From a virus: a stretch of DNA of 40,139 bases. The position numbers and the translations under genes are program-made. The stretch lies in the UHGV virus genome UHGV-0205097; one strand, given 5' to 3'. Of this stretch, positions 3,364 through 28,443 are shown piece by piece (the first letter of the stretch is position 1; every line of letters begins with the position of its first letter). The notes below the pieces were generated by a model. It did not search any database. It was not told the origin of the DNA and saw only the letters and a program-made list of their open reading frames with translations.

Positions 3364-4878
3364 ATGTTGTACGACCTTAGTTGGTTAAATGATGGTGAAC
3401 AGTTTCCTCCAGAAACAGAAGTAAATCGAATAAATGCATACGATAGATACGCTAAATTGTTTGATATTGCGCCTTTTGAAGAGTTTGAAGAGATTGCAGA
3501 TCGACTTATAGTAAACTTTGATGCATATTTTGATATTCCGCTTTTGTTAGGATTCCAGAGACTTTCCACTATTAAGTTATCAGATATGGTAATAGGTGCT
3601 CCGCCTTCTATTACAGTAAATGATAATGATTCTATGACTGATGTAATATCAGACATAAGAGACCAGACAGATTTCGATAGTAAACTTTACCTTGCACTTA
3701 TTGATTACTCACGTTATGGTGTTGCAGTATTTAGACTTTTTAATGACGATGAAGTCGTCGAGGACAGAGGTAATTTTGCAGTTTGGAATCCTTGTGAATG
3801 GTTTCCAATACTTAAAAAAGATGGCACCAAGAGAATTGACAAGCACGTAATAGCCTGGAGAGTCAATATGGGTTCGGATTTGAATCCTGATTGGTATCTC
3901 AAAGTCCAGATACATCCTGTAATAGGTGGCAGTTATGAATCACGTGAATACCAGATGGACCCGTCAGGTCAATATGTGTCAAAACTTATAAGTCATAAAA
4001 TAACAAGTACAGGCGATATGCCTTGTCTTGTTCAGCATATATCTAATTTGCCTTCTACAACAAATGTATATGGCACATCAGATTATAAAATTATGAACGA
4101 ACTTGTCTTCAAAGCAACAGAGCGTATGAGACAAATTCTTCATATACTTGATAAACATGCTGATCCTTCAATGACAGGACCTGCAACAATGCTTCAAACA
4201 AATCCTAATACGGGTGAACTTGAATTTAAGACGTCGCAGTTTTACGCTGTGTCGCCTGGTGAGGAACATCCGGAATACATGACGTGGGACGGACAACTTG
4301 AGGCTGCTTTCAAAGCACTTGAACAGTTGCTAAATCTTATTTATGTTATGTCGGAAATGGGCGAAGCTATGATGGGTAAAACAGATGGTACTGGTCAAGC
4401 TATTTCAGGAACTGCTATGAGATATAAGATGGTCGCTCCGCTTGAAAAAGCAAGACGAGTTTCCAATTCTTTTACTTTACCGCTTAAAAAACTTATGGCT
4501 ACGCTTGCACAAATAAGTACAGGTAAAGTAATGAGATATCAGGACATCAATGTAATATGGGAAGATAGCTTGCCGAAAGATCCTCGTGAGATCGCTGAGC
4601 TTACAAGACTTCAGACAGGTGCACCGCAGATACTTCCTCTTAGACACGCTCTTATGGAGAACTATGATATGGATTCTGCTGACGCAACCCATTATATTGA
4701 CGAAATAAAGGCTGACCAGGAAATGTGGGGTGAACTTTCTGCTAAAGAAAGTGAACCACGTCCTGGTGAAGCTGGTAATCCTAGCGCACCTCCGAATCCT
4801 AACAAAAAGGGTTCAGAGAAAACACCACACAAAACAGGGACGGCAAGTTCGGAAAATCAGCGCGAGGACATCCGTTAA
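3364..4878 (+). CDS. Portal protein (SPP1 gp6-like)
   Basis: 504 aa directly after TerL; GxSDY, SGTAMRYK and 'INVIWEDSLPKD' portal-like motifs. Confidence 0.88.
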   Translation: MLYDLSWLNDGEQFPPETEVNRINAYDRYAKLFDIAPFEEFEEIADRLIVNFDAYFDIPLLLGFQRLSTIKLSDMVIGAPPSITVNDNDSMTDVISDIRDQTDFDSKLYLALIDYSRYGVAVFRLFNDDEVVEDRGNFAVWNPCEWFPILKKDGTKRIDKHVIAWRVNMGSDLNPDWYLKVQIHPVIGGSYESREYQMDPSGQYVSKLISHKITSTGDMPCLVQHISNLPSTTNVYGTSDYKIMNELVFKATERMRQILHILDKHADPSMTGPATMLQTNPNTGELEFKTSQFYAVSPGEEHPEYMTWDGQLEAAFKALEQLLNLIYVMSEMGEAMMGKTDGTGQAISGTAMRYKMVAPLEKARRVSNSFTLPLKKLMATLAQISTGKVMRYQDINVIWEDSLPKDPREIAELTRLQTGAPQILPLRHALMENYDMDSADATHYIDEIKADQEMWGELSAKESEPRPGEAGNPSAPPNPNKKGSEKTPHKTGTASSENQREDIR

Positions 4879-4981
4879 ATTAGCCCAGCCCCCACTTACC
4901 ATTTGGTCAAGTCTGCGCGCAGCGCAGAACTGATATATAATCTAAGGCGTAGCACAGCCGTCAATGTGCGGAGGAGTAATT

Positions 4982-5566
4982 ATGAGAACTTTTTTGTCTA
5001 AGTACATGAGTGCCGAGGCACTTGATGAACTTGAAAATGCTTACAAGAATGCTAATGCAGGAGCAACAGGCTTGCCTGTATACATTCCTAAATCACGTTT
5101 TGATGAAGAAAATACAAAACGTAAAAATGCAGAACAGCTTGTAGCAGGATTCGAAGAAGACAAGAAAAAAGCTGTAAAAGAAGCTGTTGAGAAGTACAAA
5201 GATATACCCGAAGATTGGAAACAACAGCTTGATAATGCTACTAATGCGCTTGCTACACAGAAGGCGGATTATGAAGCAAAACTTACAGCAGCAAATCAGG
5301 AAGCCGACGTAACGGCGAAAATTTACGGAGCAGGCGGTAAGAATGTTAAAGCTATAAGAGCACTGATTGACCTTAATCAGGAAGCTACTGTAGATGAACA
5401 GCTTACAGCACTCAAAGAATCGGATTCTTACCTGTTTAGCAAAACCAGCGGCTTTAAGAAGGGCACTGATAAAGACGATGATGGCGGTAAACAGAAAGAA
5501 GACGGTGCGCTTTCACAGGCTGCTATGTATAGAGCAGTCGGCATTACACCTCCGATGGAGGACTAA
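4982..5566 (+). CDS. Capsid scaffolding protein (Gp20-like)
   Basis: YIPKSRFDE motif, coiled coil, GGKNVKAIRALID and LKESDSYLF motifs; GGAGGAG RBS before ATG 4982. Confidence 0.85.
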   Translation: MRTFLSKYMSAEALDELENAYKNANAGATGLPVYIPKSRFDEENTKRKNAEQLVAGFEEDKKKAVKEAVEKYKDIPEDWKQQLDNATNALATQKADYEAKLTAANQEADVTAKIYGAGGKNVKAIRALIDLNQEATVDEQLTALKESDSYLFSKTSGFKKGTDKDDDGGKQKEDGALSQAAMYRAVGITPPMED

Positions 5567-5595
5567 AAATTTAATTAAAAGGAGAAAAGAAAAAC

Positions 5596-6828
5596 ATGCC
5601 TAACATGATCGAACTTGTTAACAAGTATCTGCCTGTACTCGACGCACAGTATAGACAGGAAGCACGTTCTGCAATTCTTGACGTACGTCCGGAATTTGTA
5701 CAGATGACACGTGACGCAAAGAAAGTAAAAATTGCTAAAATGAGAGTCGACGGCCTTGCTGATTATAGTCGTGCAAATGGCTTTACAGCTGGCTATGCTG
5801 ACCTTACATGGGAAGAGCACGAATTCACTCAGGACAGAGGTCGTGCAATTCAGATCGACGATATGGACAACGAAGAAACCTTCGGTATGGCTTTTGGCCG
5901 TCTTGCAGGTGAATTCCAGAGACTCCATGTAATCCCTGAAATCGATGCTTACAGATTTGCAAAATATTATCAGAAAGCAGCAACTCATCTCGAGTTCACT
6001 GTATCTTCTGGCGCTATTCTTAATCTCGTAGATGATTTTGATTCGCAGATGGACGACGACGAAGTACCTGAAGATGGTAGAATTCTTTTCGTTGCACCTT
6101 CTGTGTTCAAGCTTATGGTCAACGATCCGGCGCTTGAAAAATATATCTCTGTTGAAGGCGGCGAAGACAAGACCGTTAATAAGAGATTCTACTATTACAA
6201 CGGACATCCTATTATAAAGGTTCCTGCAGGTCGTTTCTATACAGAAATCGAACTTCTTGACGGTAAGACACAGGGCGAAGAAGTTGGTGGCTATAAAGCC
6301 GCTACGGGTGCAAAAGCAATCGGTATGCTTATGGTATCCAGAGAAGCCGTTATTCAGCTCGCTAAGCGTAGAATCGCAAGAGTATGGGCTCCTACAAGAG
6401 CACAGGCTGCTGGCACGGATGGCGTTAACCCTGATGCTGATGCTTGGAAATTCGACTATCGCGTATATCACGATGCTTGGGTTCTTGATGAAAAGACAAA
6501 GGGCATCGCAGGTGCAACGATCATCAATCACACTGTTACAAGTGTTGAAATTTATTCCGAAGATCAGAACGTAACAATCGAGTCCAATGCTGCTACTGTA
6601 AGCATGGCAACTGTACCGGATGGCTTCCAGCTCCGCGCACAGGTAACATTTACAGGCGGCGCTTCTACAGCAGTTAAGTGGTCCGATGGCGAAGGTCACG
6701 GTACTGTAGGTACAATCGACAGTAACGGCAATGTAACGCTCACAGGTACAGGTACATACAAAGTAACAGCAACTTCTGTATGGGATCCTTCGGTATCTGA
6801 TACTGTTACATTTACAGTAAACGCATAA
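5596..6828 (+). CDS. Major capsid protein with C-terminal Ig-like (Big2-type) domain
   Basis: GLADYSR, DRGR..IDDMDNEET, VIPEIDAYRFAK and YRVYHDAWV are typical Bacillota-phage MCP motifs. The last ~95 aa (VKWS..GTIDSNGNVT..GTYKVTATS) are Ig-like. Confidence 0.92.
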   Translation: MPNMIELVNKYLPVLDAQYRQEARSAILDVRPEFVQMTRDAKKVKIAKMRVDGLADYSRANGFTAGYADLTWEEHEFTQDRGRAIQIDDMDNEETFGMAFGRLAGEFQRLHVIPEIDAYRFAKYYQKAATHLEFTVSSGAILNLVDDFDSQMDDDEVPEDGRILFVAPSVFKLMVNDPALEKYISVEGGEDKTVNKRFYYYNGHPIIKVPAGRFYTEIELLDGKTQGEEVGGYKAATGAKAIGMLMVSREAVIQLAKRRIARVWAPTRAQAAGTDGVNPDADAWKFDYRVYHDAWVLDEKTKGIAGATIINHTVTSVEIYSEDQNVTIESNAATVSMATVPDGFQLRAQVTFTGGASTAVKWSDGEGHGTVGTIDSNGNVTLTGTGTYKVTATSVWDPSVSDTVTFTVNA

Positions 6829-8013: not shown

Positions 8014-8381
8014 TAACGGAAACAATAAAATCATTACTTCCTGAATCGCTTCAAAAGATTACGTATATAGGTGAATTTCCAACTGATGTAGATGATTGCA
8101 TCGTCATAGCTGAAGCAAGCGGACCGCATGGTCAATATTTTGCGCAAGATATGATGAATACGCCTTATATAAAAATAGGTGTACGCAATAATAAATATCC
8201 AGATGGACATTCTCTTATAAATCAATGTAAAAAAGTTTTAACAGGATACGCTGATGCCTCTACGCTCGGCGTTGTTCTTATAAACGATATAATGTACTTT
8301 GGAAGAGATGATAAACGTCGAAATGTTTTTCAACTTACATTCAAAGTATTTTCATTTGTTAAACAGGAGGGTAAAATATGA
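8010..8381 (+). CDS. Tail terminator / minor capsid-family protein
   Basis: IKIGVRN..Y and YFGRDDKRRNVFQLTF motifs; precedes the tail tube gene. Start 8004 or 8010. Confidence 0.7.
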   Translation: MITETIKSLLPESLQKITYIGEFPTDVDDCIVIAEASGPHGQYFAQDMMNTPYIKIGVRNNKYPDGHSLINQCKKVLTGYADASTLGVVLINDIMYFGRDDKRRNVFQLTFKVFSFVKQEGKI

Positions 8382-9010
8382 TTACAGAAAGACCTTATAC
8401 TGGTTTGACCGCAGAAATAAAAGTAAACAACAGCGTGCTCGGATATATGTCCGGCGTTGATCTTACGCTTGAAAAGAGTATAATCGAGGTACTTCAGTTT
8501 GGTGCAAGATACCAGGAGAAAGTACCTGCAATTAAAAACTGGACAGCGAATGTAGATGGTACAGTTGCTTTTACATCTGGCGGTTCACAGCATAAACTTT
8601 ATCAGGCTTTCGAAAGTGATGAAGAGATTACAGTAGGAATATTCCTTGACGACAAGGTTTATTTCGAAGGTAAAGCCTTCGTCGAAAACCTTAACATAAC
8701 AGGTGCACCGGATGATAAGATGAATATATCTTGTGATCTTTCCGGTAACGGCGCAATTACGTTCACAATACCTGAAGTATATCTTGTTGATATACATAGT
8801 GGTGTTGGTGGAACAACTACGCCGGGCGGTTCTCAGAAGGTAGCTAAGGGTGAACAGGTAGAAATTACAATAACACCCGCTGCAGGTTATGCGCTTGATA
8901 AGCTTATGGATAACGCAGAAGATAAAACAACCAGCGTAACAAGTAATAAGTATACGCTTACAAACGTTACGGCAGACCACGAAATAGCTGTAACCTTTAA
9001 GGAGGGTTAA
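8378..9010 (+). CDS. Major tail (tube) protein with C-terminal Ig-like/B-repeat domain
   Basis: KNWTANVDG, YFEGKAFV and ISCDLSGNG tube motifs; C-terminal GGTTTPGGSQKV..ITPAAGY..YTLTNVTADHEIAVTF. Confidence 0.85.
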   Translation: MITERPYTGLTAEIKVNNSVLGYMSGVDLTLEKSIIEVLQFGARYQEKVPAIKNWTANVDGTVAFTSGGSQHKLYQAFESDEEITVGIFLDDKVYFEGKAFVENLNITGAPDDKMNISCDLSGNGAITFTIPEVYLVDIHSGVGGTTTPGGSQKVAKGEQVEITITPAAGYALDKLMDNAEDKTTSVTSNKYTLTNVTADHEIAVTFKEG

Positions 9011-9385: not shown

Positions 9386-9654
9386 GATTTAAGCCTGACG
9401 AATTACTCGATTTAACGTTACTTCAATTTAATGCCTGTGCGATGGGGGCTATTGATAAGCAAAAAGATGCTTTAGCTTTAGCTATGCAGGGGGCCTATTA
9501 TACAGCATATTGGAATAACGCAAAGAGACCAAAATCTCTTGATCGAGTAATTCGCGACATCTATAAAGAGCCTCGAAAAGACGCTCCACTGGACGTCGAA
9601 AAATTTAAGAAACGTAAAAGGAGGTTTGAGCAACTTGGCGGATACCAACACTAA
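9014..9654 (+). CDS. Tail assembly chaperone gpGT-like fusion via -1 programmed frameshift
   Basis: Heptamer A AAA AAA at 9328-9334. The -1 frame is open from there (TEDGGSWGDFFRYGYRLGFKPDELLDLTLLQF..) to the stop at 9654, with the typical LG.KP.E..DLT motif. Confidence 0.8.
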
Positions 9655-11944
9655 AAAAGTAATGTATGAGCTCCAAGGTGACGATACCGGCCTTATTCGT
9701 ACGATAAATAGTGCGTTAAAAAAGATTGACGCATTAGATGCAAAGTTGTCTCGTATAGCGTCACGCAAGGATATCTCCGCTGTAAAAGAAGGAGAAACTC
9801 GTGACGCTATTAAGCGTATCTCAGCAATAATGAGCTCGTTGAATGCGCTTGATAAAATGCGTACACAGTTGGCTGCAATTGATATAAGGTTCCTTACAAA
9901 AGACCAGCTTGCGTTGGTCAAGACTGCGGCAGCCGAAATCAATGCAATGTCTAAAAATTTAGGTAAAGCAACTGACGCAGGAAGTGTTACGCAAGAAACG
10001 CTTACAAATACAAGCAAGAGAATAAATGAGCTACGTAAAGCTTTTCGTTTGTCTAACATTGAGTTAGAGCAAACATCAAGCAATACGAACAGGATGAATG
10101 CTTCGTTTGAAGCTTCAACTCAAATAGCGGCTGACTTTAGACATGCAGTAAGTCGTTTAGCAGCTACTTTAAGACGTATTGTCGGAGTTATTCGAACCAC
10201 GTATCGTATCTCTTCAGAATTGTTTACACTTGCCGCGGATTTCGGCGAAACGATGAACAAATTTAACGTAGTTGCTGGTACCACAAGTAAACAGCTTAGC
10301 GAGTTTGCAGATAGTATGCACGATGCGTTTGGTATCGATATAAGCGACATATACGACGCTACAGCATCTTTTAAGAGTATATCTAACTCAATAGGACTTG
10401 CAGACGAAAAAGCAGTTACTTTTTCTACCACATTGTCCAAATTAGCAGTCGACTTGTCCTCGTTGTATAACACCTCTGTTGAGCAAGCTATGAATGCTCT
10501 TACTTCAGGACTTCACGGACAGCTAAGGCCTCTTAAAAATTACAACATTTATCTGTACGAAACAAACTTACAACAGACAGCACTTGCATATGGTATAACA
10601 AAAAATGTAAGTGCAATGAACGAATCGGAACGAGTACTTCTTCGTTACTTATCCGTATTACAGCAATCTAATGAAGCGCAAGGTGATATGGCGCGTACAT
10701 TAAAGTCCGCTGCTAACCAGATGAAGATTACGCAAGCCCAGCTTACGCAAGTCAAACGTAGCTTAGGTCAAATTGTTACAGTTATAGTAATGGTTGCCTT
10801 GCCTGCTATAAACGTAATATTTGCGGCACTTGCAAAAGTAGCTGAATTTATTGCACAAACATTGGGTTACTCATTAGAAGACTTTACAGTAGGTGTATCT
10901 AATGCGCTCGAAGATGGCGAAGATAGTATTGAAGATTATTCTGACGCACTAAACGGATTACTTGCTCCTCTTGACGAAATAAACACCGCTAACAAAGGTA
11001 CGAATTCACTCGAGGATGTTTTAGCAATTGATCCGGCTATACTGAATGCACTCGCAACCTATGACAACTTGATGGGTAGCATTTCGAATAACATAGGTAA
11101 TGTATCGGATACAATTGCCCGAGGACTTGAGGGTACGTTAATAGTTGATATGATTCAGCTTGCGGCGGGTGCTCTTAAAGTGTTTGGTCAAGCTATCGAT
11201 TTTGTAGTAGAACATTGGGAAGCATTTGAACCTGTGGTTAAGACACTTATAAATCTACTTTCGATTTTTTTAGGTATTACTGTTGTTAAAACCTTTATAG
11301 GTTGGGGTACAGCAATCGTTGGGCTTGTAGCCAAATTAAAGGCTTTCGCAATAACTGTTCCTTTAGCAACTAAAACGATCAACGGTGCCTTATTAACTAC
11401 GTCTTCGGCCGTATCCGGCCTTACACTTGCGCTTGGCGCTTTATCATTTGCCGCAAGTTATGCGCTGTTTTCAACTTTCTTCGACCAATTTGATAGTCAG
11501 ACACGTAAAACGATCGGGACAATTTCACTTCTTATATCACTCCTCGGTGCTGCAACTATAGCTTGGGCCGCTTATCACGGCGCTATGACATTAGGCGTAG
11601 CTATACCAGCACTTGCAGCTTCAATAGGTATTGCTGCTGCTTCCGCAAGAGCTGCGCTACCACAGATGGCAACCGGTGGTGTTGTGTCAAGTCCTACTGT
11701 AGCAATGATAGGCGAAGGTAAATACGATGAAGCAGTTGTACCGCTCGGTAATTCACCGCAGTTTAAGTCAATGAAAGAAAGCATCGCGGATGAAGTTGCG
11801 AATCGCGTAATAGGTCGGTCAAGTCTGTCCGCAAGCGAACAAAAATATATAATACTGAATGTAAACGGAAAAGAGTTTGCAAGAGCAATATTGCCTGATA
11901 TGGCTACGGTTGCTCCGCAAGTGGGGGTGACGATTAAACGATGA
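9635..11944 (+). CDS. Tape measure protein
   Basis: Long helical Ala-rich ORF with hydrophobic segments and C-terminal MATGGVV..PTVAMIGEG..EAVVPL motif. AGGAGG spacing favours TTG 9635 over 9626. Confidence 0.92.
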   Translation: MADTNTKKVMYELQGDDTGLIRTINSALKKIDALDAKLSRIASRKDISAVKEGETRDAIKRISAIMSSLNALDKMRTQLAAIDIRFLTKDQLALVKTAAAEINAMSKNLGKATDAGSVTQETLTNTSKRINELRKAFRLSNIELEQTSSNTNRMNASFEASTQIAADFRHAVSRLAATLRRIVGVIRTTYRISSELFTLAADFGETMNKFNVVAGTTSKQLSEFADSMHDAFGIDISDIYDATASFKSISNSIGLADEKAVTFSTTLSKLAVDLSSLYNTSVEQAMNALTSGLHGQLRPLKNYNIYLYETNLQQTALAYGITKNVSAMNESERVLLRYLSVLQQSNEAQGDMARTLKSAANQMKITQAQLTQVKRSLGQIVTVIVMVALPAINVIFAALAKVAEFIAQTLGYSLEDFTVGVSNALEDGEDSIEDYSDALNGLLAPLDEINTANKGTNSLEDVLAIDPAILNALATYDNLMGSISNNIGNVSDTIARGLEGTLIVDMIQLAAGALKVFGQAIDFVVEHWEAFEPVVKTLINLLSIFLGITVVKTFIGWGTAIVGLVAKLKAFAITVPLATKTINGALLTTSSAVSGLTLALGALSFAASYALFSTFFDQFDSQTRKTIGTISLLISLLGAATIAWAAYHGAMTLGVAIPALAASIGIAAASARAALPQMATGGVVSSPTVAMIGEGKYDEAVVPLGNSPQFKSMKESIADEVANRVIGRSSLSASEQKYIILNVNGKEFARAILPDMATVAPQVGVTIKR

Positions 11945-13009: not shown

Positions 13010-14452
13010 ATGACACTTACACCATATATTTATCATTCAGGACTAAAGTGGTCATTACTTCCTAAAAATATTATTGATACGGTCGTCACAACACCTATCA
13101 ATAATACTATGGGAGATGAAACCGTAGTCCATACAGAATCTTTTACTACCAGTAGTTTAGGAAATTTACCTGTTGCAAATTCTGTTGCACCTACTTATAT
13201 ACGAACAATGCGGAATAAAGGTTCAACATTTGCAACAAGAAATTTCACTTACGCAAAAGCACGTACGGAAGCGTTAATAGCTACTGGCACTAAGAAAATA
13301 ACAACAGAAAAACCTGTAGCAGGTATACCTAATGTTGAATTAGTATTTTCCGGAACTTCTTCCGTTATTACTCGAGGCGAAAATTCATTTGACGATTACC
13401 CTACTCTTGAACAATTACAGGATAATACGTTTTCACTTGCGGAATGGATAGAATCCAATAAATCTTCCGCAAGTCAGGCGCTTACGTGGAGTTACGGCAC
13501 ACGTGCGTTTTCAATGAATCCTTGGGTAAAAAATATTATTACTGTGAACGACCCGCAAGCGGTGTCGCCGGCTGATATCTTTACGAATTGGGCGGAACAC
13601 GTAACTACATCAACAACAGCTGAAGTTAACAATTGGGAAGAACATTTTAATTATAATCCAGGTAATACTAATGCAGTACGTGTAAAACCTTATCTTATAG
13701 GAGGCGATCTTTTTGAAGAAGCCCAGAGAGCGCTATTACTTATCGATAATAGTATCAGTATTAGCGTAGAAGTTGTAAAAATCGATGACTACAATTTCGA
13801 AATAACTTGGGAAGCACCCGTCAGATTTGCTTATATTGCAGCGTCACAAAAGCGTGGTACAATTCTTGGTATAGCCACAGACATCGATAACTGGGCGTTT
13901 GTTGATAATATTACACAAATCGATGTGAACATTAAGAGTCAACCTTTTAATACAGATAAGGTAACGCGTAGCTATAGCTTGTCCGCAAGTAACACGTTAA
14001 CTACAAACGTTTCAAATGAACATCCTATCACAATAAATGGGGATGAAGTAATAACACTTGAAACTTACGTAGGAGTAGGACGTGATCCTTGGACCGAATA
14101 TATTGCGTCAACATTGTTGTTAAAATACAAAGAGGGCAAGTATATTGTTAATTGCACAGTTTTAGGTGATTGGGCAATACAAAACAATATACATATTAAC
14201 TCAGCTTTAACAGTACAGTTACTTGACGGCACTATTATTTCGAGGAACGGAGTACCGTGTTTCTTTGAGGTCAAGACTATCGAAAAAGTTTACAGAGGTG
14301 ATACTTTTGAGTTTAATTTAGGATTACTCGAAAGTTATACTGCAAATAAACTTGCGACACCTACTGGACTTACTATTACAGCAACATTAGATGCTACGCA
14401 GCTCAGTAAGCCGACAGGACTTACTATTACAGCAAATTTTGAAAGGGAATGA
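13010..14452 (+). CDS. Tail tip protein ending in two tandem FN3 A-strand-like peptides
   Basis: 480 aa; C-terminus KLATPTGLTITA-TLDAT-QLSKPTGLTITAN. Confidence 0.6.
   Translation: MTLTPYIYHSGLKWSLLPKNIIDTVVTTPINNTMGDETVVHTESFTTSSLGNLPVANSVAPTYIRTMRNKGSTFATRNFTYAKARTEALIATGTKKITTEKPVAGIPNVELVFSGTSSVITRGENSFDDYPTLEQLQDNTFSLAEWIESNKSSASQALTWSYGTRAFSMNPWVKNIITVNDPQAVSPADIFTNWAEHVTTSTTAEVNNWEEHFNYNPGNTNAVRVKPYLIGGDLFEEAQRALLLIDNSISISVEVVKIDDYNFEITWEAPVRFAYIAASQKRGTILGIATDIDNWAFVDNITQIDVNIKSQPFNTDKVTRSYSLSASNTLTTNVSNEHPITINGDEVITLETYVGVGRDPWTEYIASTLLLKYKEGKYIVNCTVLGDWAIQNNIHINSALTVQLLDGTIISRNGVPCFFEVKTIEKVYRGDTFEFNLGLLESYTANKLATPTGLTITATLDATQLSKPTGLTITANFERE
14366..14435 (+). repeat. 19-bp direct repeat GGACTTACTATTACAGCAA (14366-14384, 14417-14435)
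   Basis: Read directly; encodes the duplicated GLTITA strand. Confidence 0.9.
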
Positions 14453-14455
14453 TAT

Positions 14456-16813
14456 ATGATTACATTTTCTTGGAATTCTGTGCCTAATGCAACTGCTTAT
14501 TCAGTTGCATGGGCACCTACCCTTTCGGGTAATAAAAAGATACTTGTTGCAAGTCAAGCGGCAACAAGTTATTCTTTCGACGGCTCACATGTAGATGACC
14601 CTTATTATGTAAATAGGGATACTTATATGTTTGTTCGAGCGCTTGACGGAAGCAATTATGTATCTTCGGATTGGGCAAGTGTGGTAATGCAAATGAGAGA
14701 AGTTTCTATTGCGGGATCTCATATATCATCAACACTTGCTATAGGTGATTATCGAGTTGTAGTAGGTACAACTGTACCTTCGTTCACAATAACACCTGAT
14801 AAGGGTTATCAACTTACTGCCGAAGATATATCAATTGTAAATAACGGTGTTGATATTACTTCGCAAGTTTATAACGCAAATACTCATACTGTATCTTCGT
14901 TTGTAGTAAACGGTTCTGTGCAAGTTCTTGCGACAGCAGTACAGGCACAACTTGCGGCACCTGTAATAAGTTTGTCAGGATCAATAGTATCTTGGGCAGC
15001 TATTCCAGATGCAGAAAGTTATAAATTGTATGTTAATGGACAATTTACGGCTAATCTCGGAAACGAACTCTCTGTTGATTTGTCGCAAGTTATCGCGCTT
15101 AAAGTTCCTTACACTGTCAATGTACTCGCACATGCAAGTGGATTTAAGGACTCAGAACTTAGTAATACAATTTCATATACACCTAAACCCGATGCACCAG
15201 TACTCACTCTTAACGGTAATATTCTTTCATGGGTAGCAATTCCGAGTGCTACAAAATACACACTTGTAGCTATCTCGAATAGCTTATCATTATCGAAAAC
15301 AAAAACTGTAGACGCAAATACTACGTCGCTTGACTTGACCACGTGGACTGATCTCGTTCCAAGTTCTTGGACAATCGGCGCAATTGCATATGTTGGTGAT
15401 GTACGTAGTGATACATCTGATACCGTAACTTACGTTAATACAATTCAGTTGGCGTATCCCGAAACAGTAAATATATCCGGTAATGTGCTTACTTGGAATA
15501 ATGTCGCAAATAACTCGGGTTATGAAATATTGTATCGTAGAGTGAACGGTACAGGTGAAATATATCAGACTGATATAGTTGACACAGATATTACACAACA
15601 CACATTAACGGTAACAACAGCTGGCTCATATTCTATAACAGTAGTTACAATAGGTACAGGTTCTTATACGGATAGTGAAGAAAGTCCTTCTGTAACGTAT
15701 ACCGTTCAGAACAAGCTTGCAACGCCCACGATAGCGATTGACGGAAACACCTTAAATATAACAGATGTTGAGAATGCGCAGAAATATAAAATCTACGCTA
15801 ACGGGGAGCTTAAAACTACTATTCCAAAAGGAAGTACACAAACAACATATGATTTAACAAACCTTAATCTCAGCGCAGGTAATTATGCGATAACAGTCGT
15901 TGCCGAAGCAGAAGGATTTACAGATTCAGATGTAAGTAATTCAGTTAACTACACTGTTCAAGCTCAATTAGCCACACCTACAATAGCAATGAACGCAGAC
16001 GGTAAAACGCTTGAAATAACGGACGTAGAAAATGCAACGAGTTATGATGTGTATGTCGACGGAACGTTGAAAATAAATGTACAGAGAGTTACGGGGTATA
16101 CGGTTACTTTTGCATCTGATTTCTCAAGTATTGCTTATGCGGGTGGGGAGCTAAGTGATGTAACATTGACGGCAAATACTGGCGTATCTACACCGCTAAC
16201 AAGCACCGCAAGGGGATTAGTGTGGCAGGGAGTTTCTAATCTTATATCGTCTCGCAGTGTAGCTTTAGGTATAAGTTACACTGATGCGAGTGGTGCAAAT
16301 AAATCCTTTAATAACTATCTCGCATTGACTTCTGATATTACAATTACGTATGCAAATGATACTTGTCTAACAGGTGATACGCTCATTACTCTTGCAGATG
16401 GTACGACAAAGCGTATTGATACAATCACACTTGCTGACAGGGTGCTTGCATATAATCCCGAAACGATGGCTCTTGAAGCAGATGAAATCATTCGTTGCGA
16501 CAGCGACAAAATAAAGACACACAGCGAATATGATGTCTGGACATTTAGTGATGGAACAATTATCAAGACTGTACATCGCCATAGATTTTACAATGTTGAA
16601 CGTAATGCAATGGTTTATATGGACGAATGGAAAATTGGTGAACATGGCAGAAAAAAAGATGGAGTACTTGTTACACTTGTGTCGCATGAGAATGTCAAAG
16701 AAACAGTCAATCACTATACTATCTTTACGAAAAAACAAAACTATTTTGCGAACGGTCTTTTGAGTGGTAACAGATACACAAAGCCTATTGTATTCGCAAA
16801 TGATGGGAGGTAA
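14456..16813 (+). CDS. Tail fibre/adhesin with FN3-like repeats and a C-terminal Hint (intein-like) domain
   Basis: Repeats of the form LAxPxI..LSW.A.P.A..Y...DL....Y...V.A...G..DS..SN...YT. Hint domain from CLTGDTLITLADG (16364) to NYFANGLLSGN (16771). Confidence 0.8.
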   Translation: MITFSWNSVPNATAYSVAWAPTLSGNKKILVASQAATSYSFDGSHVDDPYYVNRDTYMFVRALDGSNYVSSDWASVVMQMREVSIAGSHISSTLAIGDYRVVVGTTVPSFTITPDKGYQLTAEDISIVNNGVDITSQVYNANTHTVSSFVVNGSVQVLATAVQAQLAAPVISLSGSIVSWAAIPDAESYKLYVNGQFTANLGNELSVDLSQVIALKVPYTVNVLAHASGFKDSELSNTISYTPKPDAPVLTLNGNILSWVAIPSATKYTLVAISNSLSLSKTKTVDANTTSLDLTTWTDLVPSSWTIGAIAYVGDVRSDTSDTVTYVNTIQLAYPETVNISGNVLTWNNVANNSGYEILYRRVNGTGEIYQTDIVDTDITQHTLTVTTAGSYSITVVTIGTGSYTDSEESPSVTYTVQNKLATPTIAIDGNTLNITDVENAQKYKIYANGELKTTIPKGSTQTTYDLTNLNLSAGNYAITVVAEAEGFTDSDVSNSVNYTVQAQLATPTIAMNADGKTLEITDVENATSYDVYVDGTLKINVQRVTGYTVTFASDFSSIAYAGGELSDVTLTANTGVSTPLTSTARGLVWQGVSNLISSRSVALGISYTDASGANKSFNNYLALTSDITITYANDTCLTGDTLITLADGTTKRIDTITLADRVLAYNPETMALEADEIIRCDSDKIKTHSEYDVWTFSDGTIIKTVHRHRFYNVERNAMVYMDEWKIGEHGRKKDGVLVTLVSHENVKETVNHYTIFTKKQNYFANGLLSGNRYTKPIVFANDGR

Positions 16814-16816
16814 ACA

Positions 16817-17284
16817 ATGAGTAAAACAACATTAGATTTATCAACATTGTCCGATATAGCGGACGGCGCACATACCGTAAAGGTTAAAGCAAAGGCTGAC
16901 GGGTACAGAGACAGCGAGTTTTCTAACGAAGTAAGCTATACGAAAGCGCCAGCGGGATATAATCTTACTACATCAAATGTGTCAATTCCAAACGAGAATT
17001 ACGCCTATTTTGATATTACGTTTGGTGATGGAACCACAAAAAGTGCACAATTAGGTGATAATACCACGATAGGCAATCAAAGCTCGATAAATTATCCCAA
17101 AGTAAGTAACCCTATACTCAATGTTATTAAAATTAGACTATATACATACAAGGATTATCCGTCAAAACCGTACATAAGAATGAAAACGTCTGGTACGGTT
17201 TTAGACAAGAGACAACAAGGCGGAAGTATAGAATTAGAGCTAACAGCAGATACGAGTGTTTTAATTTTGAACGGTTCCGCATAA
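16817..17284 (+). CDS. Tail fibre partner protein: C-terminal half of an FN3-like repeat + variable beta domain
   Basis: N-terminus SKTTLDLSTLSDIADGAHTVKVKAKADGYRDSEFSNEVSYT matches the second half of the repeats in 14456..16813; GGGAGG RBS. Confidence 0.7.
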   Translation: MSKTTLDLSTLSDIADGAHTVKVKAKADGYRDSEFSNEVSYTKAPAGYNLTTSNVSIPNENYAYFDITFGDGTTKSAQLGDNTTIGNQSSINYPKVSNPILNVIKIRLYTYKDYPSKPYIRMKTSGTVLDKRQQGGSIELELTADTSVLILNGSA

Positions 17285-17545: not shown

Positions 17546-17764
17546 ATGATTTCGCTACTCAGAAGACACAATGTAGATTACAATAATATTTGTGAGTTTA
17601 TTGCTGACGCTGAAGTTGATATCAATACTGCTGATGAACAAATTGAAAAAATTCTCGGCGGGACTTGCGGCATACATTCAGCAATATTAGTAATTGATAC
17701 AAATAAAACTTACTATAAAAAATCTACAGGTGAATGGGTGCCATTAGGAGGTGGGAGCGCTTGA
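17546..17764 (+). CDS. Hypothetical protein (72 aa)
   Basis: AAGGAGGT RBS before ATG 17546; the track's start at 17444 is probably too early. Confidence 0.7.
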   Translation: MISLLRRHNVDYNNICEFIADAEVDINTADEQIEKILGGTCGIHSAILVIDTNKTYYKKSTGEWVPLGGGSA

Positions 17765-17940
17765 ATATAATAAAGGCTCCTTTGGCAACTATTATTCCGC
17801 AAGTAATAGGCGTCATTATTCCCGAGCCGCAAATATCACAACTAAGTAAACCCACAAATTTACAAATAAAAGCGGAGGTAAATAATTATGTATCAAGCAA
17901 CCGGAGCACTATTCGCAAAAAAAGACGTTCGCGATTATAA
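17761..17940 (+). CDS. Hypothetical protein carrying an FN3 A-strand-like peptide
   Basis: GGAGGT RBS, TTG start overlapping the previous stop; contains QLSKPTNLQIKAE. Confidence 0.5.
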   Translation: MNIIKAPLATIIPQVIGVIIPEPQISQLSKPTNLQIKAEVNNYVSSNRSTIRKKRRSRL

Positions 17941-18958
17941 AGCAAATTTTATAGCTGGCTCATTTGATTTTCCTGAAACATATGAGTGTCCTAATATGCC
18001 TGAACCAGTCGATCAAGGCTCAGTAAATTCTTGCGTAGCTTGTTCACTCAAGACAATAATAGAATGGCACTCAAGAAGACAAGGTGATGATTCACGACCT
18101 ATGAGTATAGGTTACATTTATGGTAATCGTGAAAATTCTACACATACTGGCGAAGGAATGTATACGCGCGAAGCGATAGGTTCAATTGTGACCTATGGTG
18201 ACTGTGCGAAAGAAGATTTCCCGGAGAACGTAGAAGTTCCGCGTGTAATAGAGTTGTTCAAGTCTCGCGTGACGCAACTTATTGATGTAGCTTATCCTAA
18301 CAGAATTACATCATACGCAGTGCTTACATCAGATAAAGCTACGAAAGCTGCACTGATGCAAAATGGTCCTGTAGTAATGGCTATGGAATGGTTCGGCGAT
18401 ATTACATTCGATAAATACTACATAATGCACACATCGTGCAAGCATTCATTTAAGAACGGCGGCCATTGTATGGTTATCTACGGTTGGAATAAAGATGGAT
18501 GGCTTGTTCAGAACTCATGGGGAAAGGATTGGCAAAACGGAGGTCGGTGCATTATTCCTTTCGATGTATCAATACGCGAACGTTATCAAATTGTTGACAA
18601 TTTTTCAGAAGCAATGAATAAAAAACGCATTGAAGACTTGACCAAACAAAATGAAGAACTTCTTCAGGTTGTCGCAAACTTGCGCCTTCAGATAGCTACT
18701 CTTACAGAACAGCTTAAAGAATTTAACGAGTATAAAGAACTCACGCAAGAGCAGATAAATAAAATCGATGATCTTTCTACAGAATTATTTAACGCAAATA
18801 ATAAACTGTACGAAAGTCTTGAAACAATTGAAAATCAGAAGAAGGAGATTGAAGCTTTGCGCAAGGAATTGCTCGAAGTGAAAAAACCCTATAACACCCC
18901 TTGGGGCAAGCTTATCGCAAAGATAATCAATCTCATTCTTCGAATATTTAGTATATAA
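17888..18958 (+). CDS. Papain-like C1 cysteine peptidase + coiled coil + amphipathic C-terminal helix (candidate lysin)
   Basis: DQGSVNSCVA (Gln/Cys), GGHCMVIYGW (His) and VQNSWGKDW (Asn) catalytic motifs; directly upstream of the holin. Confidence 0.85.
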   Translation: MYQATGALFAKKDVRDYKANFIAGSFDFPETYECPNMPEPVDQGSVNSCVACSLKTIIEWHSRRQGDDSRPMSIGYIYGNRENSTHTGEGMYTREAIGSIVTYGDCAKEDFPENVEVPRVIELFKSRVTQLIDVAYPNRITSYAVLTSDKATKAALMQNGPVVMAMEWFGDITFDKYYIMHTSCKHSFKNGGHCMVIYGWNKDGWLVQNSWGKDWQNGGRCIIPFDVSIRERYQIVDNFSEAMNKKRIEDLTKQNEELLQVVANLRLQIATLTEQLKEFNEYKELTQEQINKIDDLSTELFNANNKLYESLETIENQKKEIEALRKELLEVKKPYNTPWGKLIAKIINLILRIFSI

Positions 18959-20134: not shown

Positions 20135-20407
20135 ATGATTTCAGTAAATAGTTTTGATGAAGCGCGTAATTATCCTGTAATGTTTAACACAGCAGAAATT
20201 TTTCTTGATAATAATCGAAACGTGTTCTATCTGAAGTCCGTCGACTCTATGGGCAAATACACAATAAATACTTACAAATTTGAACAAGTAGAAAATGAAA
20301 AGCCCATGACAACGGCGGACTTCGCAACACGTGAACAGTTCGAAAGTTTAAGTTCAAAACTTGACACATTACTATCACAGTTAGGAGTGAATACTGATGG
20401 CAAATAA
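20135..20407 (+). CDS. Accessory cassette protein 1 (hypothetical)
   Basis: Strong RBS; VNSFDEARNYPV..FYLKSVDSMG..FATREQFESL. Confidence 0.75.
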   Translation: MISVNSFDEARNYPVMFNTAEIFLDNNRNVFYLKSVDSMGKYTINTYKFEQVENEKPMTTADFATREQFESLSSKLDTLLSQLGVNTDGK

Positions 20408-20603
20408 TATTCTTCAGACACTTGCACAGCAGAAAGTACAACCCACAAATACTAATATGTTACAGCAGTTAAAAGATTTCAAACGTAATTACAAAGGTGA
20501 CCCTAAGCAGGCAGTAATGTCAATGCTTCAAAGTGGTCAAATCAATAACGCTCAGCTCCGGCAAGCTATGGCGTTTGCCCAGCAGTTCAAAGGATTGTTA
20601 TAA
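20397..20603 (+). CDS. Accessory cassette protein 2 (Gln/Met-rich helical)
   Basis: AGGAG RBS; GDPKQAVMSMLQSGQINNAQL. Confidence 0.75.
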   Translation: MANNILQTLAQQKVQPTNTNMLQQLKDFKRNYKGDPKQAVMSMLQSGQINNAQLRQAMAFAQQFKGLL

Positions 20604-20655
20604 TAGTAGGTCGACATGCTATTATTTCAAAATAAATTAACAAAGAGGTAATACA

Positions 20656-21285
20656 ATGGAAAATATGTCTCCGGCTGATATCCGTGCGGTAACACACGAC
20701 AATGATGATGGATTCGGCGGTGGGTGGCTTTGGATTGTAGTACTGTTCCTCTTCATGTATGGATTCGGTGGAAACGGATTCAATAGACAGGGAGAATTCG
20801 GTCAGTACGCAACTGCAGCTTCACAGCAGGAAATCCTTTACGGTCAGCAGTTTGGTCAGCTCAACGATAGACTGACAAACATCGGCAATGGTATTTGTAG
20901 TCTCGGCTACGAAATGCAGGGTAATATAGCGCAGCTTGGTAAAGAAGTTGCTCTGGGCCAGTCAAGTCTGGGCATGAACGTAATGTCCACAGGTAATGCA
21001 ATTCAGAAACAGCTTTCTGATTGTTGCTGCGAAAACAGACTTGCAACAGCAAATCTTGCGGCACAGATGGATCGCCAGACTTGCGACATCACAAGCGCTA
21101 TTCGTACAGAGGGCGAAGCAACACGCGCTCTTATCCAGACAAACGAAATTCAGGCACTCCGCGACAAAGTGTCACGTCTTGAAATGGACAACAGAATGTA
21201 CGGCGTAGTAAGATACCCTAACGGTTATACTTATAACGCAGGTGCATCTCCGTTCTGCGGTTGTAACAACGGTTGTTGCGCATAA
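20656..21285 (+). CDS. Accessory cassette protein 3: Gly-rich TM segment + coiled coil + Cys clusters
   Basis: GFGGGWLWIVVLFLFMYGFGGNG, DCCCEN and C-terminal CGCNNGCCA. Confidence 0.8.
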   Translation: MENMSPADIRAVTHDNDDGFGGGWLWIVVLFLFMYGFGGNGFNRQGEFGQYATAASQQEILYGQQFGQLNDRLTNIGNGICSLGYEMQGNIAQLGKEVALGQSSLGMNVMSTGNAIQKQLSDCCCENRLATANLAAQMDRQTCDITSAIRTEGEATRALIQTNEIQALRDKVSRLEMDNRMYGVVRYPNGYTYNAGASPFCGCNNGCCA

Positions 21286-21322
21286 AATTTCAACAACACT
21301 TTAACAAGTAAGGAGAAATAAT

Positions 21323-21739
21323 ATGTATAGAAAATCCGCTCAGGTAGCTGTTAATACTACCGCGCAGGCAACAACTGCAGCAGGAACTACGTTGAATGTA
21401 CTTGGAATAAAACTTACAAATACAGGATGTTCAATAAGTACACTCGGCAATGGATTCAAAATTAACGATGGTGGTCTTTATAAAATAAGATACGTTATTA
21501 CAGTAACTCCTACCGCAGCGGGCACACTTGCGGCACAGTTATTTGTAAATGGTACTGCGCTTCCGTGTTCTCTTATACAAAACACTGTTGACGCAAGTAC
21601 CACATACACCTACGTAATTGAAGCGCCCGCTGTATGTGTTCAAGCCTGCTGTGCAGTGCAGCCTATTGTAACCGCAACAGTAAGTGGCGTAGCAGCTGAC
21701 GTAACATACGTAAGCGCTTCCGCTGTAAGACTTGCGTAA
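21323..21739 (+). CDS. Accessory cassette protein 4: beta-sandwich (BclA-C/C1q-like, tentative)
   Basis: FKINDGGLYKIRYVITV..QLFVNGTALP pattern; Cys residues. Confidence 0.6.
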   Translation: MYRKSAQVAVNTTAQATTAAGTTLNVLGIKLTNTGCSISTLGNGFKINDGGLYKIRYVITVTPTAAGTLAAQLFVNGTALPCSLIQNTVDASTTYTYVIEAPAVCVQACCAVQPIVTATVSGVAADVTYVSASAVRLA

Positions 21740-22233
21740 TGACTACCTCGGAATTCTGGCGCAAGATAAGCGCCCATCAGATTGAAGGTGTAATGTTTCA
21801 TTTTCAGATGATTGATTTATTTGAGTTCTTAGGCTTGCGCAAGTTATCCGAGGAACAGGAAAATCACTTCTACGAAGAAACATTAGCATTACGCAATACA
21901 CATAAATATGTATTAGATACTCATAACATTTTATTACTCAACGATAAGTTGGGAACACCTAACTTAATACCATCCTCGTGGTCAAGTCATACGCGGATGG
22001 ACGTTGATAAATCGACGCGTCGGTCAAGTGTAATGTCTGCGTTTGATAAGTGGCGTCAATGGGAATCCGATACGCTCCAATTTTATACCGAGATGCGCGA
22101 CGAGTCTGATAGTGTACTCGATATAGAAAAACTAAATAAAATGATTGAAGATGTTGGTTGCGAACTTCAAGAAATTTACAATACGATACTCGAATTGAAA
22201 ATTCGTGATTTCGACCCAGCGAGTTTAATCTAA
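21739..22233 (+). CDS. Accessory cassette protein 5: ferritin-like helical bundle (tentative)
   Basis: HQIEGVMFH, FLGL, EENHFYEE, WESDT and DVGCEL: spaced Glu/His residues in helices. Confidence 0.6.
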   Translation: MTTSEFWRKISAHQIEGVMFHFQMIDLFEFLGLRKLSEEQENHFYEETLALRNTHKYVLDTHNILLLNDKLGTPNLIPSSWSSHTRMDVDKSTRRSSVMSAFDKWRQWESDTLQFYTEMRDESDSVLDIEKLNKMIEDVGCELQEIYNTILELKIRDFDPASLI

Positions 22234-25763: not shown

Positions 25764-26455
25764 CTTTTAACTGGACTATATCATCTACTGCCCTTATCGC
25801 GACAGTAGGAGTGCGCTTCAGCCTTTCGGCTTACGGGCTCGCGCCCTAGTCTCTGCTCTTACGTAATTGTTGATGTAACTTTGAGTGCGCAGCATTTGTC
25901 ATAAGCGCTAAATTGCTTATATCGTTATTATGCTTGTCGCCGTCTATATGATGAATAACAAAACCGGCCGGTATTTCCGTTAAGCCTAACGCTTTACACA
26001 TAACTACGGAATGCTCAAAAACATGGTTGCATCCTGTGCGTCCGGTATACCATTCAGGGCGCAATATCATCCAATATCCACGACCATCAGAAACACGCTC
26101 TTTGTAGTTAGGATGCTGTTCTTTGTACTTTCCCTTCATTGGATTTTTATCACCCTTTTTAGATAACTGATAACTACGCTGCTTACGCATTTTACGATAA
26201 TCTCTATCGTACATATCGTACAAAAACCCTCTGTAAAGCCAAGTAACAGATATTCCCAATTCTTCTGCTATCTGAGCGTCCGTCAAATTTGTTTCTTCAT
26301 ATAGTCTCTTTAATTTATTTACATCAACTGTCATAATCATGTACCTCCTATGGTAGATATTATTTACGTTTAGATCAGGATTATCCCTTTCGGGCCTTCC
26401 CTGAATTCACACTCTTCTTCGATGTAGCTCACGCTACAAAGCCCCAACATGTTTT
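25764..26455 (-). mobile_element. Group I intron 1 in polA (692 nt, IA-like)
   Basis: P1: CCCU|AA pairs with UUGGGG. P10: CAUGUU pairs with 3' exon AACAUG. P AAUUCAGGGAA, Q AAUCCUGAUC, R CAGAGACUA, S GAUAUAGUCC, terminal G. Splicing restores SDP|NMQNIP. Confidence 0.92.
25846..26340 (-). CDS. Intron-encoded HNH homing endonuclease
   Basis: VFEHSVV..GFVIHHIDGDKHNNDISNLALMTNAAHSKLH; N-terminal HTH-like segment; AGGAGG RBS. Confidence 0.9.
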   Translation of the reverse strand: MIMTVDVNKLKRLYEETNLTDAQIAEELGISVTWLYRGFLYDMYDRDYRKMRKQRSYQLSKKGDKNPMKGKYKEQHPNYKERVSDGRGYWMILRPEWYTGRTGCNHVFEHSVVMCKALGLTEIPAGFVIHHIDGDKHNNDISNLALMTNAAHSKLHQQLRKSRD

Positions 26456-27739
26456 AGGGTCACTACAACTCAAACGACCTGTTTCCGTTCCGTGCAAGTT
26501 AAACGTACAACGTACACGGTTATCCTTATTCATAACACTGAATATGCCTTGAACATAAGTATCCATGTACTTGTTATACTTGCGCAAGTCCATAATGGCT
26601 TGCACAAACGGTATCTTGGGAAATTCTTCGGCAAGGGCGCTCAACGCGTCGGCGTCAGTTTTGTCAAGTTTCTTACCTGTTATTGTTTCAAGCATCCATT
26701 TGAGCTGCTTAGGTGACTTGTGATTGAAAATACTGGAAAATGTTTTAGCACCCGTGTCGCTCATATACGCAGCAGGATCCCAGGTACGTGCTGCTTCCTC
26801 TTTTACGTGTTTCTCGGCTTCGTATATAAGTGTGTCGAGTTTATCTTGCAACTCATAAATATAATCCTGGTCTACGAGACAACCTGCGACCTCTATATCA
26901 CGAAATACGTTCGCAGCCTTGACCAACTTATAATAAATATCGATTGAACCCGGACGCATTATGCGTTTGAATTTTTTGTTTAACTGATATGTTGTGCAAG
27001 CATCGCGATAAAGATAAGGTATCAATATATCGCTCGATATCATATCGTATTGAAAATCAGCCATCTTTACTTTATGTTGCAAGCACCACTTACGTTTGTA
27101 TTCATTCAGCTTATCATCCCACTGAGGTGTCTGTAAGTATAAAGGACCCAAATCCTTTAAGCCGTGTGTACCTTTACGCTCGTTTATTCCGGCATAATGT
27201 TGCAACATAGTATCTTCATCTATACGTGCGCGTATTTCCATAAGATATTTCAAACGCGCTGTATCGAATTTACCGTTTTGCCATATAAATGTTATATTTG
27301 TTTTATCAAATAAATTCTGCAATTCATCAATAGGAAAATCATCTCCTACTTTTAGAACAATGGCGTCATAATCACTGTACGCAAAACCTATAAGTAATAC
27401 TTTATTACCATCGTAACCCGTATTACGCGTTTCTATATCCACTGAAAGTAAATCGTATTGTGCAAGCCTGTCCAGAGCTTGCACAATATCTTCTTTAGTC
27501 TCATATGTAACGCCGTTTACTTTAGAATCATCCCACCATCCTTTTTCAGGAGCTCCGTCAAGATAATTGTGAACTGCTTCTATAAGTATATCCATCAAAT
27601 TGAAGTTTCCACGTAAGACTGTTTCAGTGGGTACGTAAAGTACATCATTTACTACCTTGAAAAATCTTTCGTGATTCATAGTAAGACGTATTTCTTTACC
27701 TTCTGGTATATTCGGTGCAATTGCTTCTATAACCGTCAT
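26456..27739 (-). CDS. polA: DNA polymerase A, exon 1 (3'-5' exonuclease and start of polymerase domain); spliced product ~696 aa
   Basis: Exo motifs VDIET, QNGKFD and YLYRDA; FNHKSPKQL; GTETGRLSCSDP. Confidence 0.92.
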
Positions 27740-28443
27740 ACGAGACCTGCCTCTCTTAATTCATCACGAATATCATTGTATATATAATCCTTAAAGTTAT
27801 CGTGATATAAATCGATTGTACGCACCGGACGCTGTCCCCATATATCGCGTACGCCTTCTCTTGCAAACAACGAAGGTATACAAGTATCACAACTGCGTAT
27901 ACTTGCAGGATCCTTGTACTGCCTGAATTCATCAAGTGAATCCCAACAACCGAGCAAGTGAATTGCTTTAGAACTGCCTCTCCATAGTTCCTCAAGTCCT
28001 GGGCGCCCACTTTTTGTCAAGTTACGCGATACTTTAGGAATACCTATACTGTGTATTTCAGGCATCTGCGACAACAGATAAAAACATTTACAGAATTCAT
28101 CAATTGTACCACCATGACAAACTGCCATAAGCCTAAAATCGTGAAGTCTTCCCATACGTCTAAGATGTTCGATATCTTTCGCAACACGCTCTACTGTTTC
28201 AAGTCCTTTTGTAAATACATCAGGAAGTATAAATTCATGTGCGTCGCAACGTACTGCCGCATCATACACAGTGTTTATGTCTACTGCTCCACCCAATTCA
28301 ATCAGGCTATTATCCATTATGCGATAACAATTTTTGTTAGCTGACAACGGATAATAGCCTGACATATGCGCAAGAAGCATAGCATAATCACCGTCGTAAG
28401 TTCTTACTATCTGTTTAACTGGTACTATGCTTGCTAATTTCAT
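27736..28443 (-). CDS. TGT/DpdA-like TIM-barrel base-exchange enzyme (divergent)
   Basis: Motif order IMDNS / ILPDV / AVCHG / IGIP / IHLLG / SCDT parallels the TGT-family D-S-G, D, QG, G, H.LG and S.D motifs; near yhhQ. Confidence 0.62.
   Translation of the reverse strand: MKLASIVPVKQIVRTYDGDYAMLLAHMSGYYPLSANKNCYRIMDNSLIELGGAVDINTVYDAAVRCDAHEFILPDVFTKGLETVERVAKDIEHLRRMGRLHDFRLMAVCHGGTIDEFCKCFYLLSQMPEIHSIGIPKVSRNLTKSGRPGLEELWRGSSKAIHLLGCWDSLDEFRQYKDPASIRSCDTCIPSLFAREGVRDIWGQRPVRTIDLYHDNFKDYIYNDIRDELREAGLV

Follow-up and report, generated by a model that had tools for sequence, protein, structure and literature searches.

Can a single FN3 domain be cut by the boundary between two phage tail genes and be put together again from the separately made proteins? 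The question is raised by UHGV virus genome UHGV-0205097, of which a stretch of 40,139 nucleotides (the window) was analysed here. The window is a tailed phage genome with genes for terminase, portal, scaffold, major head, major tail and tape measure proteins. Its tail-tip gene at 13010..14452 (13010) ends with two peptides resembling strand A of an FN3 domain, and the next gene, a fibre gene at 14456..16813 (14456), begins at strand B. A preliminary description had proposed that the tail-tip protein docks fibres by donating these A strands. The results below indicate that the split FN3 domain is real and likely functional, and that the same fibre carries a second cut, absent from that description and more widespread than the cut between strands A and B (A|B cut).

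The two pieces of the split domain

The features at the boundary, all on the plus strand, were as follows.

13010..14452, plus strand: tail-tip protein, likely hub/Tal-like, bearing the strand-A tail (gene order and Atlas neighbours)
14348..14383, plus strand: FN3 strand A, copy 1, KLATPTGLTITA (matrix rank 6 of 48,621; in 15 of 15 cluster sequences)
14399..14434, plus strand: FN3 strand A, copy 2, QLSKPTGLTITA (alignment to strand A in whole FN3 domains)
14450..14458, plus strand: TGA stop (14450-14452), one spacer codon (TAT) and the in-frame ATG of the fibre gene (sequence, four runs)
14456..14689, plus strand: FN3 domain with strands B-C-C'-E-F-G only, predicted socket (profile, model, 24 of 24 homologues)
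14948..15955, plus strand: four complete FN3-type repeats of the fibre, two to four in relatives (repeat profile)

The two tandem strand-A peptides reported previously were located at the positions given above. KLATPTGLTITA and QLSKPTGLTITA follow a period of 51 nucleotides (nt), so that a 17-residue unit occurs twice and is followed by ANFERE and the TGA stop. The copies differ at 10 of 36 bases, and three copies of the copy 2 unit are present in the related sequence L001.

Copy 2 plus the start of 14456, read through the stop, was used as a query against 1.84 billion representatives and matched 226 proteins, of which the best 150 were analysed, 148 of them new. After local re-alignment, 83 single domains in 40 of the 148 proteins reached from the peptide to at least query residue 80, and Pfam fn3 scored above its cut-off in six of the seven scanned proteins among those with this span. 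Pfam searches with the 14456 domain, either alone or read through, gave no family match, fn3 (PF00041) included. When the ten-mers of the window were ranked with a matrix made from the complete repeats only, copy 1 came 6th of 48,621, right behind the five training repeats. Copy 2 fell outside the top 25, so its strand-A assignment rests on the generic FN3 matches; the resemblance of copy 1 is to the local repeats, that of copy 2 to a generic FN3 strand A. A hand-made motif (two matches against a shuffle mean of 0.004) was not taken as evidence because it was fitted to the peptides themselves. No clear orphan strand A or strand-B start was seen by eye at the ends of the 148 distant proteins, and no FN3 acceptor was found by the repeat profile in the donor gene 13010.

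The abrupt start of the fibre at strand B was borne out by both profile and model. The protein begins MITFSWNSVP, in the same frame as 13010, and the profile of its own complete repeats matches only from position 13 of 79, a weak match of 9 bits. The model of residues 1-85 has six strands, with a predicted local distance difference test score (pLDDT) of 75.5, and its residue 1 aligns to residues 17-21 of single-domain FN3 structures. One of these, 3mpc, aligns from residue 21 (Z 9.1, root-mean-square deviation 3.1, 77 residues aligned), and the viral structural matches include FN3 and tip-attachment proteins at a template modelling score of about 0.6. The seven-stranded A-B-E / C'-C-F-G sandwich is complete only with the two pieces together, as judged from the model and the match of the upstream tail.

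The same data also bear on an explanation in which the pieces have nothing to do with each other. In that case the tail repeats would have a job of their own, for example pairing with each other across a hub trimer or supplying strands to another tail protein, and the six-stranded domain would be stable alone or completed by some other segment. The domain is indeed modelled with fair confidence in the absence of a partner, the 17-residue unit expands like a tandem repeat, and strand donation to an intact sheet anchors the fibres of phage DT57C (PMC10713586). A confident model of a partial domain nevertheless says little about stability, and no spare or orphan strand A was found inside 14456 by profile and motif scan. 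The exact complementarity of neighbouring gene ends would moreover have to be a coincidence, and to have arisen twice given the second cut described below. We consider this explanation quite unlikely.

Conservation and selection at the boundary

Conservation of the boundary was assessed in 24 fibre homologues, one of them the window's own, from a search open to proteins of 150-2000 residues that would admit a fusion. All 24 start at strand B (MITFSWNS). They are 98-100% identical in the first domain and hence represent one population rather than 24 independent events. At the tail-tip gene, 15 sequences were examined from a cluster of 60, and all end at ANFERE, 14 with two copies of the peptide and one with four. 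The split position, which the preliminary description had left for comparison with relatives, is thus conserved in this group, and both copies are retained.

The boundary could also stem from a mistake in sequencing, or from a recent mutation that interrupted a single fused gene, and a frame that continues past the stop would be compatible with this. The stop was unchanged in four of four sequencing runs from up to four studies, one of which may be the source of the window, and in L001 and L004. Fused forms were found neither from the fibre start, among proteins of 150-2000 residues, nor for 13010, in a weak search among proteins of 841-2400 residues. Together with the uniform ANFERE end, this refutes an erroneous or recent stop, which we regard as hardly credible, and the fused close relatives that had been named as a refuting finding did not appear in these searches.

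Between the window and L004 the tail shows seven synonymous changes and one non-synonymous change, with non-synonymous and synonymous differences per site (pN/pS) of 0.012/0.241. This is similar to the gene body of 13010, for which the comparison with L001 gave 0.013/0.169. The tail is under purifying selection and is selected as protein. Three tail positions vary in 14 sequences, all of them outside the L-P-L-I-A pattern, and we read them as facing outward.

Beyond this close group the tail disappears. Twelve of 12 distant 13010 homologues (27-42% identity) lack it and end at an LMEV-like motif, and in L005, the sole distant locus with context, the tail is absent and the next gene is without the socket too. 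The tail is accordingly a lineage-specific addition. Three viral scans for distant relatives of the A|B cut gave one contig and a metagenome scan gave two loci. An outside example was noted by eye in L018, where the gene at 3576-4622 ends near KLAAPVIVLTI and the next gene (4635-6134) holds an FN3 domain starting at strand B behind an N-terminal domain; L018 is a possible independent A|B split.

Predicted RNA structure and possible read-through at the junction

Two predicted RNA structures lie at the junction.

14435..14477, plus strand: predicted hairpin whose loop holds the AUG and in which the weak ribosome site and TGA are paired (fold no better than shuffles, z -0.55)
14480..14516, plus strand: strong predicted RNA hairpin, 27 nt after the stop (z -4.25, 0 of 200 shuffles as stable)

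Of 265 windows scored across the tail and lysis region, six reach z -4, and the second hairpin ranks first among them. It lies inside the longest run of that region, 143 nt, that is invariant against L001 and L004. The run is weak evidence because 2% of uniform simulations reach this length, and runs of 135 and 119 nt exist elsewhere. No Rfam match was obtained at the junction. The ribosome site of 14456 has a pairing energy of -5.7 kcal/mol, which places it in the weakest four of the 19 starts that were scored. No RNA run was found among those that contain the junction, and two runs labelled as RNA are probably DNA. The junction RNA fits either translational coupling or read-through.

Occasional read-through of the in-frame TGA would make a continuous chain of hub and fibre, the domain being completed in cis by the last strand A. 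The in-frame stop in structured RNA, which the preliminary description did not mention, keeps this explanation alive. The frame is open across 14450-14452, the strongest of the 265 hairpin windows lies just downstream within the invariant run, the ribosome site is weak and paired, and among the six TGA stops at 21 gene junctions only the one before 14456 is followed by an in-frame start. Phages are also described as adding immunoglobulin-like (Ig-like) domains to virion proteins by recoding, through frameshifting in the cases concerned (PMC5009743). These points are offset in several ways. In-frame neighbours are common in the window, at five of 21 gene junctions and three times with the same 3-nt gap. 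A hairpin starting 27 nt past the stop is probably beyond the reach of a terminating ribosome, and the invariant run has near equals elsewhere. The span from Pro to Trp in the read-through product would be 21 residues, a length reached in three of 128 complete domains, where the mode is 18. The strongest argument against pure read-through is that all 15 sequences keep copy 1, although completion in cis is open to the last copy alone. Read-through likewise leaves the four-copy form and the second cut unexplained, and it is unable to join strands A-B-C-C' directly to E-F-G at the second cut because a head, often with a Hint module, lies between. On these grounds read-through as the sole explanation appears unlikely, though a serious contender, and it could coexist with docking in trans.

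A second cut in the same fibre

Downstream of its complete repeats the fibre is cut again, this time in the middle of the FN3 fold.

15965..16084, plus strand: half FN3 domain, strands A-B-C-C', with a variable head behind it (profile positions 1 to about 40; pN/pS 0.04-0.06 / 0.55-0.66)
16817..16948, plus strand: half FN3 domain, strands E-F-G, at the start of the next gene (16817) and followed by a variable head (profile positions 40-79; pN/pS 0.03-0.05 / 0.50-0.64)
16364..16771, plus strand: Hint (intein-like) module at the fibre C-terminus (Pfam Hint E 8e-4, below its cut-off)

In 23 of the 24 fibres the FN3 chain stops after strand C' and runs into the variable head. The exception is P0022, a natural fusion in which both halves form one complete domain; in one run, two contigs have loose ends whose sequence looks like its fused junction. 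Heads are exchanged behind both halves: in P0030 the first half is followed by the head of 16817, and in P0022 the complete domain is followed by the head of the window's fibre.

The second cut is shared by unrelated phages. Its two halves were present in L010, whose head and connector families are different, as well as in L013, L015 and L017. Of 15 loci from one search, 11 were examined, with the near-identical L022, L023, L025 and L026 left out. In L024 (4992-7782) and L028 (4959-7697) a gene begins with the E-F-G half and carries the tail-protein domain phrog_5302. It stands beside a reverse transcriptase-like gene, as shown for L024 and probable for L028, which suggests that these E-F-G genes are targets of diversity-generating retroelements. 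The record title of L028 names Acholeplasmatales. Matches in L019, L020, L021 and L027 were rejected as halves since they are complete domains, and an Atlas search with 16817 returned nothing above 0.80.

The start motif of the Hint module occurs in 14 of 24 fibre variants, and head-bearing genes in L007, L013, L015 and L018 also end in Hint-like modules; self-cleavage and an aid to folding are candidate roles. In P0026 both FN3 halves stand in one chain (residues about 420-572) with some 70 residues between them, including MKFKKNIQFFA. This peptide looks like a fused gene start, and it presumably resembles a Prp protease cleavage motif.

Exchange of heads around fixed FN3 pieces could also mean that the fragments are relics or recombination anchors, that is, FN3 leftovers kept as blocks of DNA homology at which heads are swapped. 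In the DNA, the E-F-G half stays constant while the sequences that flank it are swapped, and heads do move between halves in P0030 and P0022. An apparently unselected relic exists nearby in the form of an open reading frame at 17761-17940, with 59 residues, a strong ribosome site, the strand-A-like peptide QLSKPTNLQI and 17 cluster members. It was considered as a third plug and rejected, having six non-synonymous changes, one of them a stop, against one synonymous change. The tail and both halves, in contrast, have mostly synonymous changes (pN/pS about 0.05-0.11), which indicates that selection acts on the protein, both halves included, rather than on identity of the DNA. An origin as relics or anchors is largely refuted and very improbable.

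A proposed model of docking and branching

Taken with the rival explanations above, these data lead us to favour, with moderate confidence, a reading in which separately made proteins are joined by fold complementation that both docks and branches the fibres. A strand-A peptide of 13010 would slot into the incomplete first domain of fibre 14456, and with two peptides each tail-tip subunit would hold two fibres. Closure of both cuts in trans on the virion would fork the end of each fibre into two heads; were 13010 a trimeric hub, the tail tip could carry as many as six fibres and twelve heads. Translation of the fibre may be coupled to that of the tail-tip gene by the hairpin that covers the ribosome site. 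The identity of the fragments, their conservation and the selection on them are shown, whereas binding, stoichiometry and location on the virion are what we infer here; the genomic predictions of the docking proposal (a conserved split, a 14456 domain without strand A and retained copies) held, and the in-frame stop in structured RNA and the absence of the tail from distant homologues were additions to it.

Several observations weigh against this reading. Because the 20 rows of complete FN3 domains that guided the B-G model were selected for likeness, its fold is biased towards FN3, and the single-sequence fold of 14456 residues 1-167 reached a pLDDT of 42.5 and was not used. The low rank of copy 2 in the complete-repeat matrix belongs here too. 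The peptide of the 17761-17940 reading frame, which persists without selection, implies that a strand-A motif alone proves little and can survive without function. Only one close group (at least 97% identity) is known to have the A|B cut with this tail, all distant 13010 homologues lack the tail, and the split in L018 was not caught by our own motif scan. Finally, a ribosome site that is both weak and predicted to be paired means that independent translation of 14456 is not assured, and the TGA before it is singular in being followed by an in-frame start.

A broader proposal, in which we place slightly less than even confidence, is that a single FN3 fold serves gut phages as a connector kit with two levels. 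Steps of 51 nt in copy number, which is two or four in the tail-tip sequences, would set the number of fibres, and the half-domain joint would fork each fibre into two heads that can be swapped independently, some of them fed by diversity-generating retroelements. Gene boundaries would in this way tune both the valence and the combination of receptor binding.

Comparison with known systems

Completion of a fold between chains is already known from pili and from engineered FN3 fragments. An FN3 domain split in the CD loop refolds from two peptides (PMC11666773), and the title of PDB 4m6a describes an FN3 scaffold with an N-terminal strand swap. Both resemble the present locus in that the fold reassembles from fragments, and the engineered cut lies near the natural mid-domain cut. 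Those are laboratory constructs, whereas the boundaries here are natural gene boundaries under selection.

The analogy to chaperone-usher pili drawn in the preliminary description holds for the principle of strand completion. In these pili an incomplete Ig-like sandwich is completed by a strand of another polypeptide (PMC9046445), as is predicted here. The correspondence fails for the missing strand, the donor end and the polymerising subunit. The pilus subunit lacks strand G and receives it from an N-terminal extension, whereas strand A is missing here and the candidate donor is C-terminal, in two to four copies. Pilus subunits carry both groove and donor and polymerise, and no polymer of like subunits is formed here; the fold is FN3, the proteins are phage virion proteins and a second joint is cut mid-domain. 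No chaperone or usher was found among the 18 window proteins scanned against Pfam. The differences in missing strand, donor end and self-polymerisation indicate that the phage system is not a member of the chaperone-usher family.

Type V pili of Bacteroidota (PMC9046445) offer another parallel. Their donor strand is C-terminal and goes into the next subunit, which is the likeness to the plugging predicted for the tail of 13010. Type V prepilins are secreted and matured by a protease, whereas no secretion or lipoprotein precursor and no protease trigger is evident here; by eye, neither 13010 nor 14456 has a hydrophobic leader at its N-terminus, and both genes lie within the phage tail module. 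The fold is also different, and donor and acceptor are different proteins.

Among phages, the hub of T5 continues into the fibre through strings of FN3 domains (PMC10038345). In its pb3/pb4 pair, as at this locus, a tail-tip protein continues into the fibre via an FN3 string over a gene boundary; in T5 whole domains meet through loops, whereas the boundary here falls inside a domain. In DT57C, fibres are anchored by strands added to sheets, and short strands of one chain (LtfA/LtfC) fasten the fibre to the tail tip (PMC10713586). There the fibre adds strands to complete sheet edges, whereas here the tail-tip protein would supply the missing strand of the fibre domain. Recoded Ig-like extensions (PMC5009743) share an Ig-like region just past the stop of a virion gene, but here the boundary splits the domain, the upstream piece is repeated and recoding is hypothetical.

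No description of natural split FN3 domains in phage tails was found in the literature covered, which held few subscription journals; the available text of PMC13370021, PMC10743442, PMC2147016 and PMC8471655 describes no split FN3 domains in phages. What is added by this locus is a tail-tip protein whose number of plugs varies, two distinct cuts within a single module, a naturally occurring fusion and measurements of selection. If the reading of fold complementation is true, the joints would give a tail tip with several branched, swappable fibres and explain the many exchangeable adhesin heads of gut phages and their varying number. They would also provide a natural pair of peptide tag and catcher, of about 12 and 80 residues, and imply that gene-by-gene annotation misses domains cut by gene boundaries.

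Genomic setting

The placement of 13010 as a hub/Tal-like protein is suggested by its position as the third gene after the tape measure gene (9626-11944), with two genes between, and by its Atlas neighbours, which are tail proteins (0.85-0.91). It has no meaningful match in Pfam, PHROG or PDB. The junction of 13010 and 14456 is present on contigs from pig gut and wastewater runs, and a search for cultured relatives of 13010 or of the FN3 repeats gave no matches among 50,697 phage records.

Elsewhere in the window, the major tail protein (8378-9010) has a divergent InlB B-repeat domain (Pfam Flg_new_2) at its C-terminus. At 17888-18958 a peptidase of the papain family (C1), which has a coiled-coil tail, adjoins a small holin-like gene, in the usual place of an endolysin; by eye, L005 has a lipase-like protein at a similar place. 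The block of small genes after the lysis module (20135-22233) resembles blocks in L013 and includes a Cys-rich protein of 209 residues. On the minus strand, 29936-32608 and 26429-28443 encode a fusion of a primase with an MCM-type P-loop domain, together with a family A DNA polymerase that is apparently divided over separate open reading frames.

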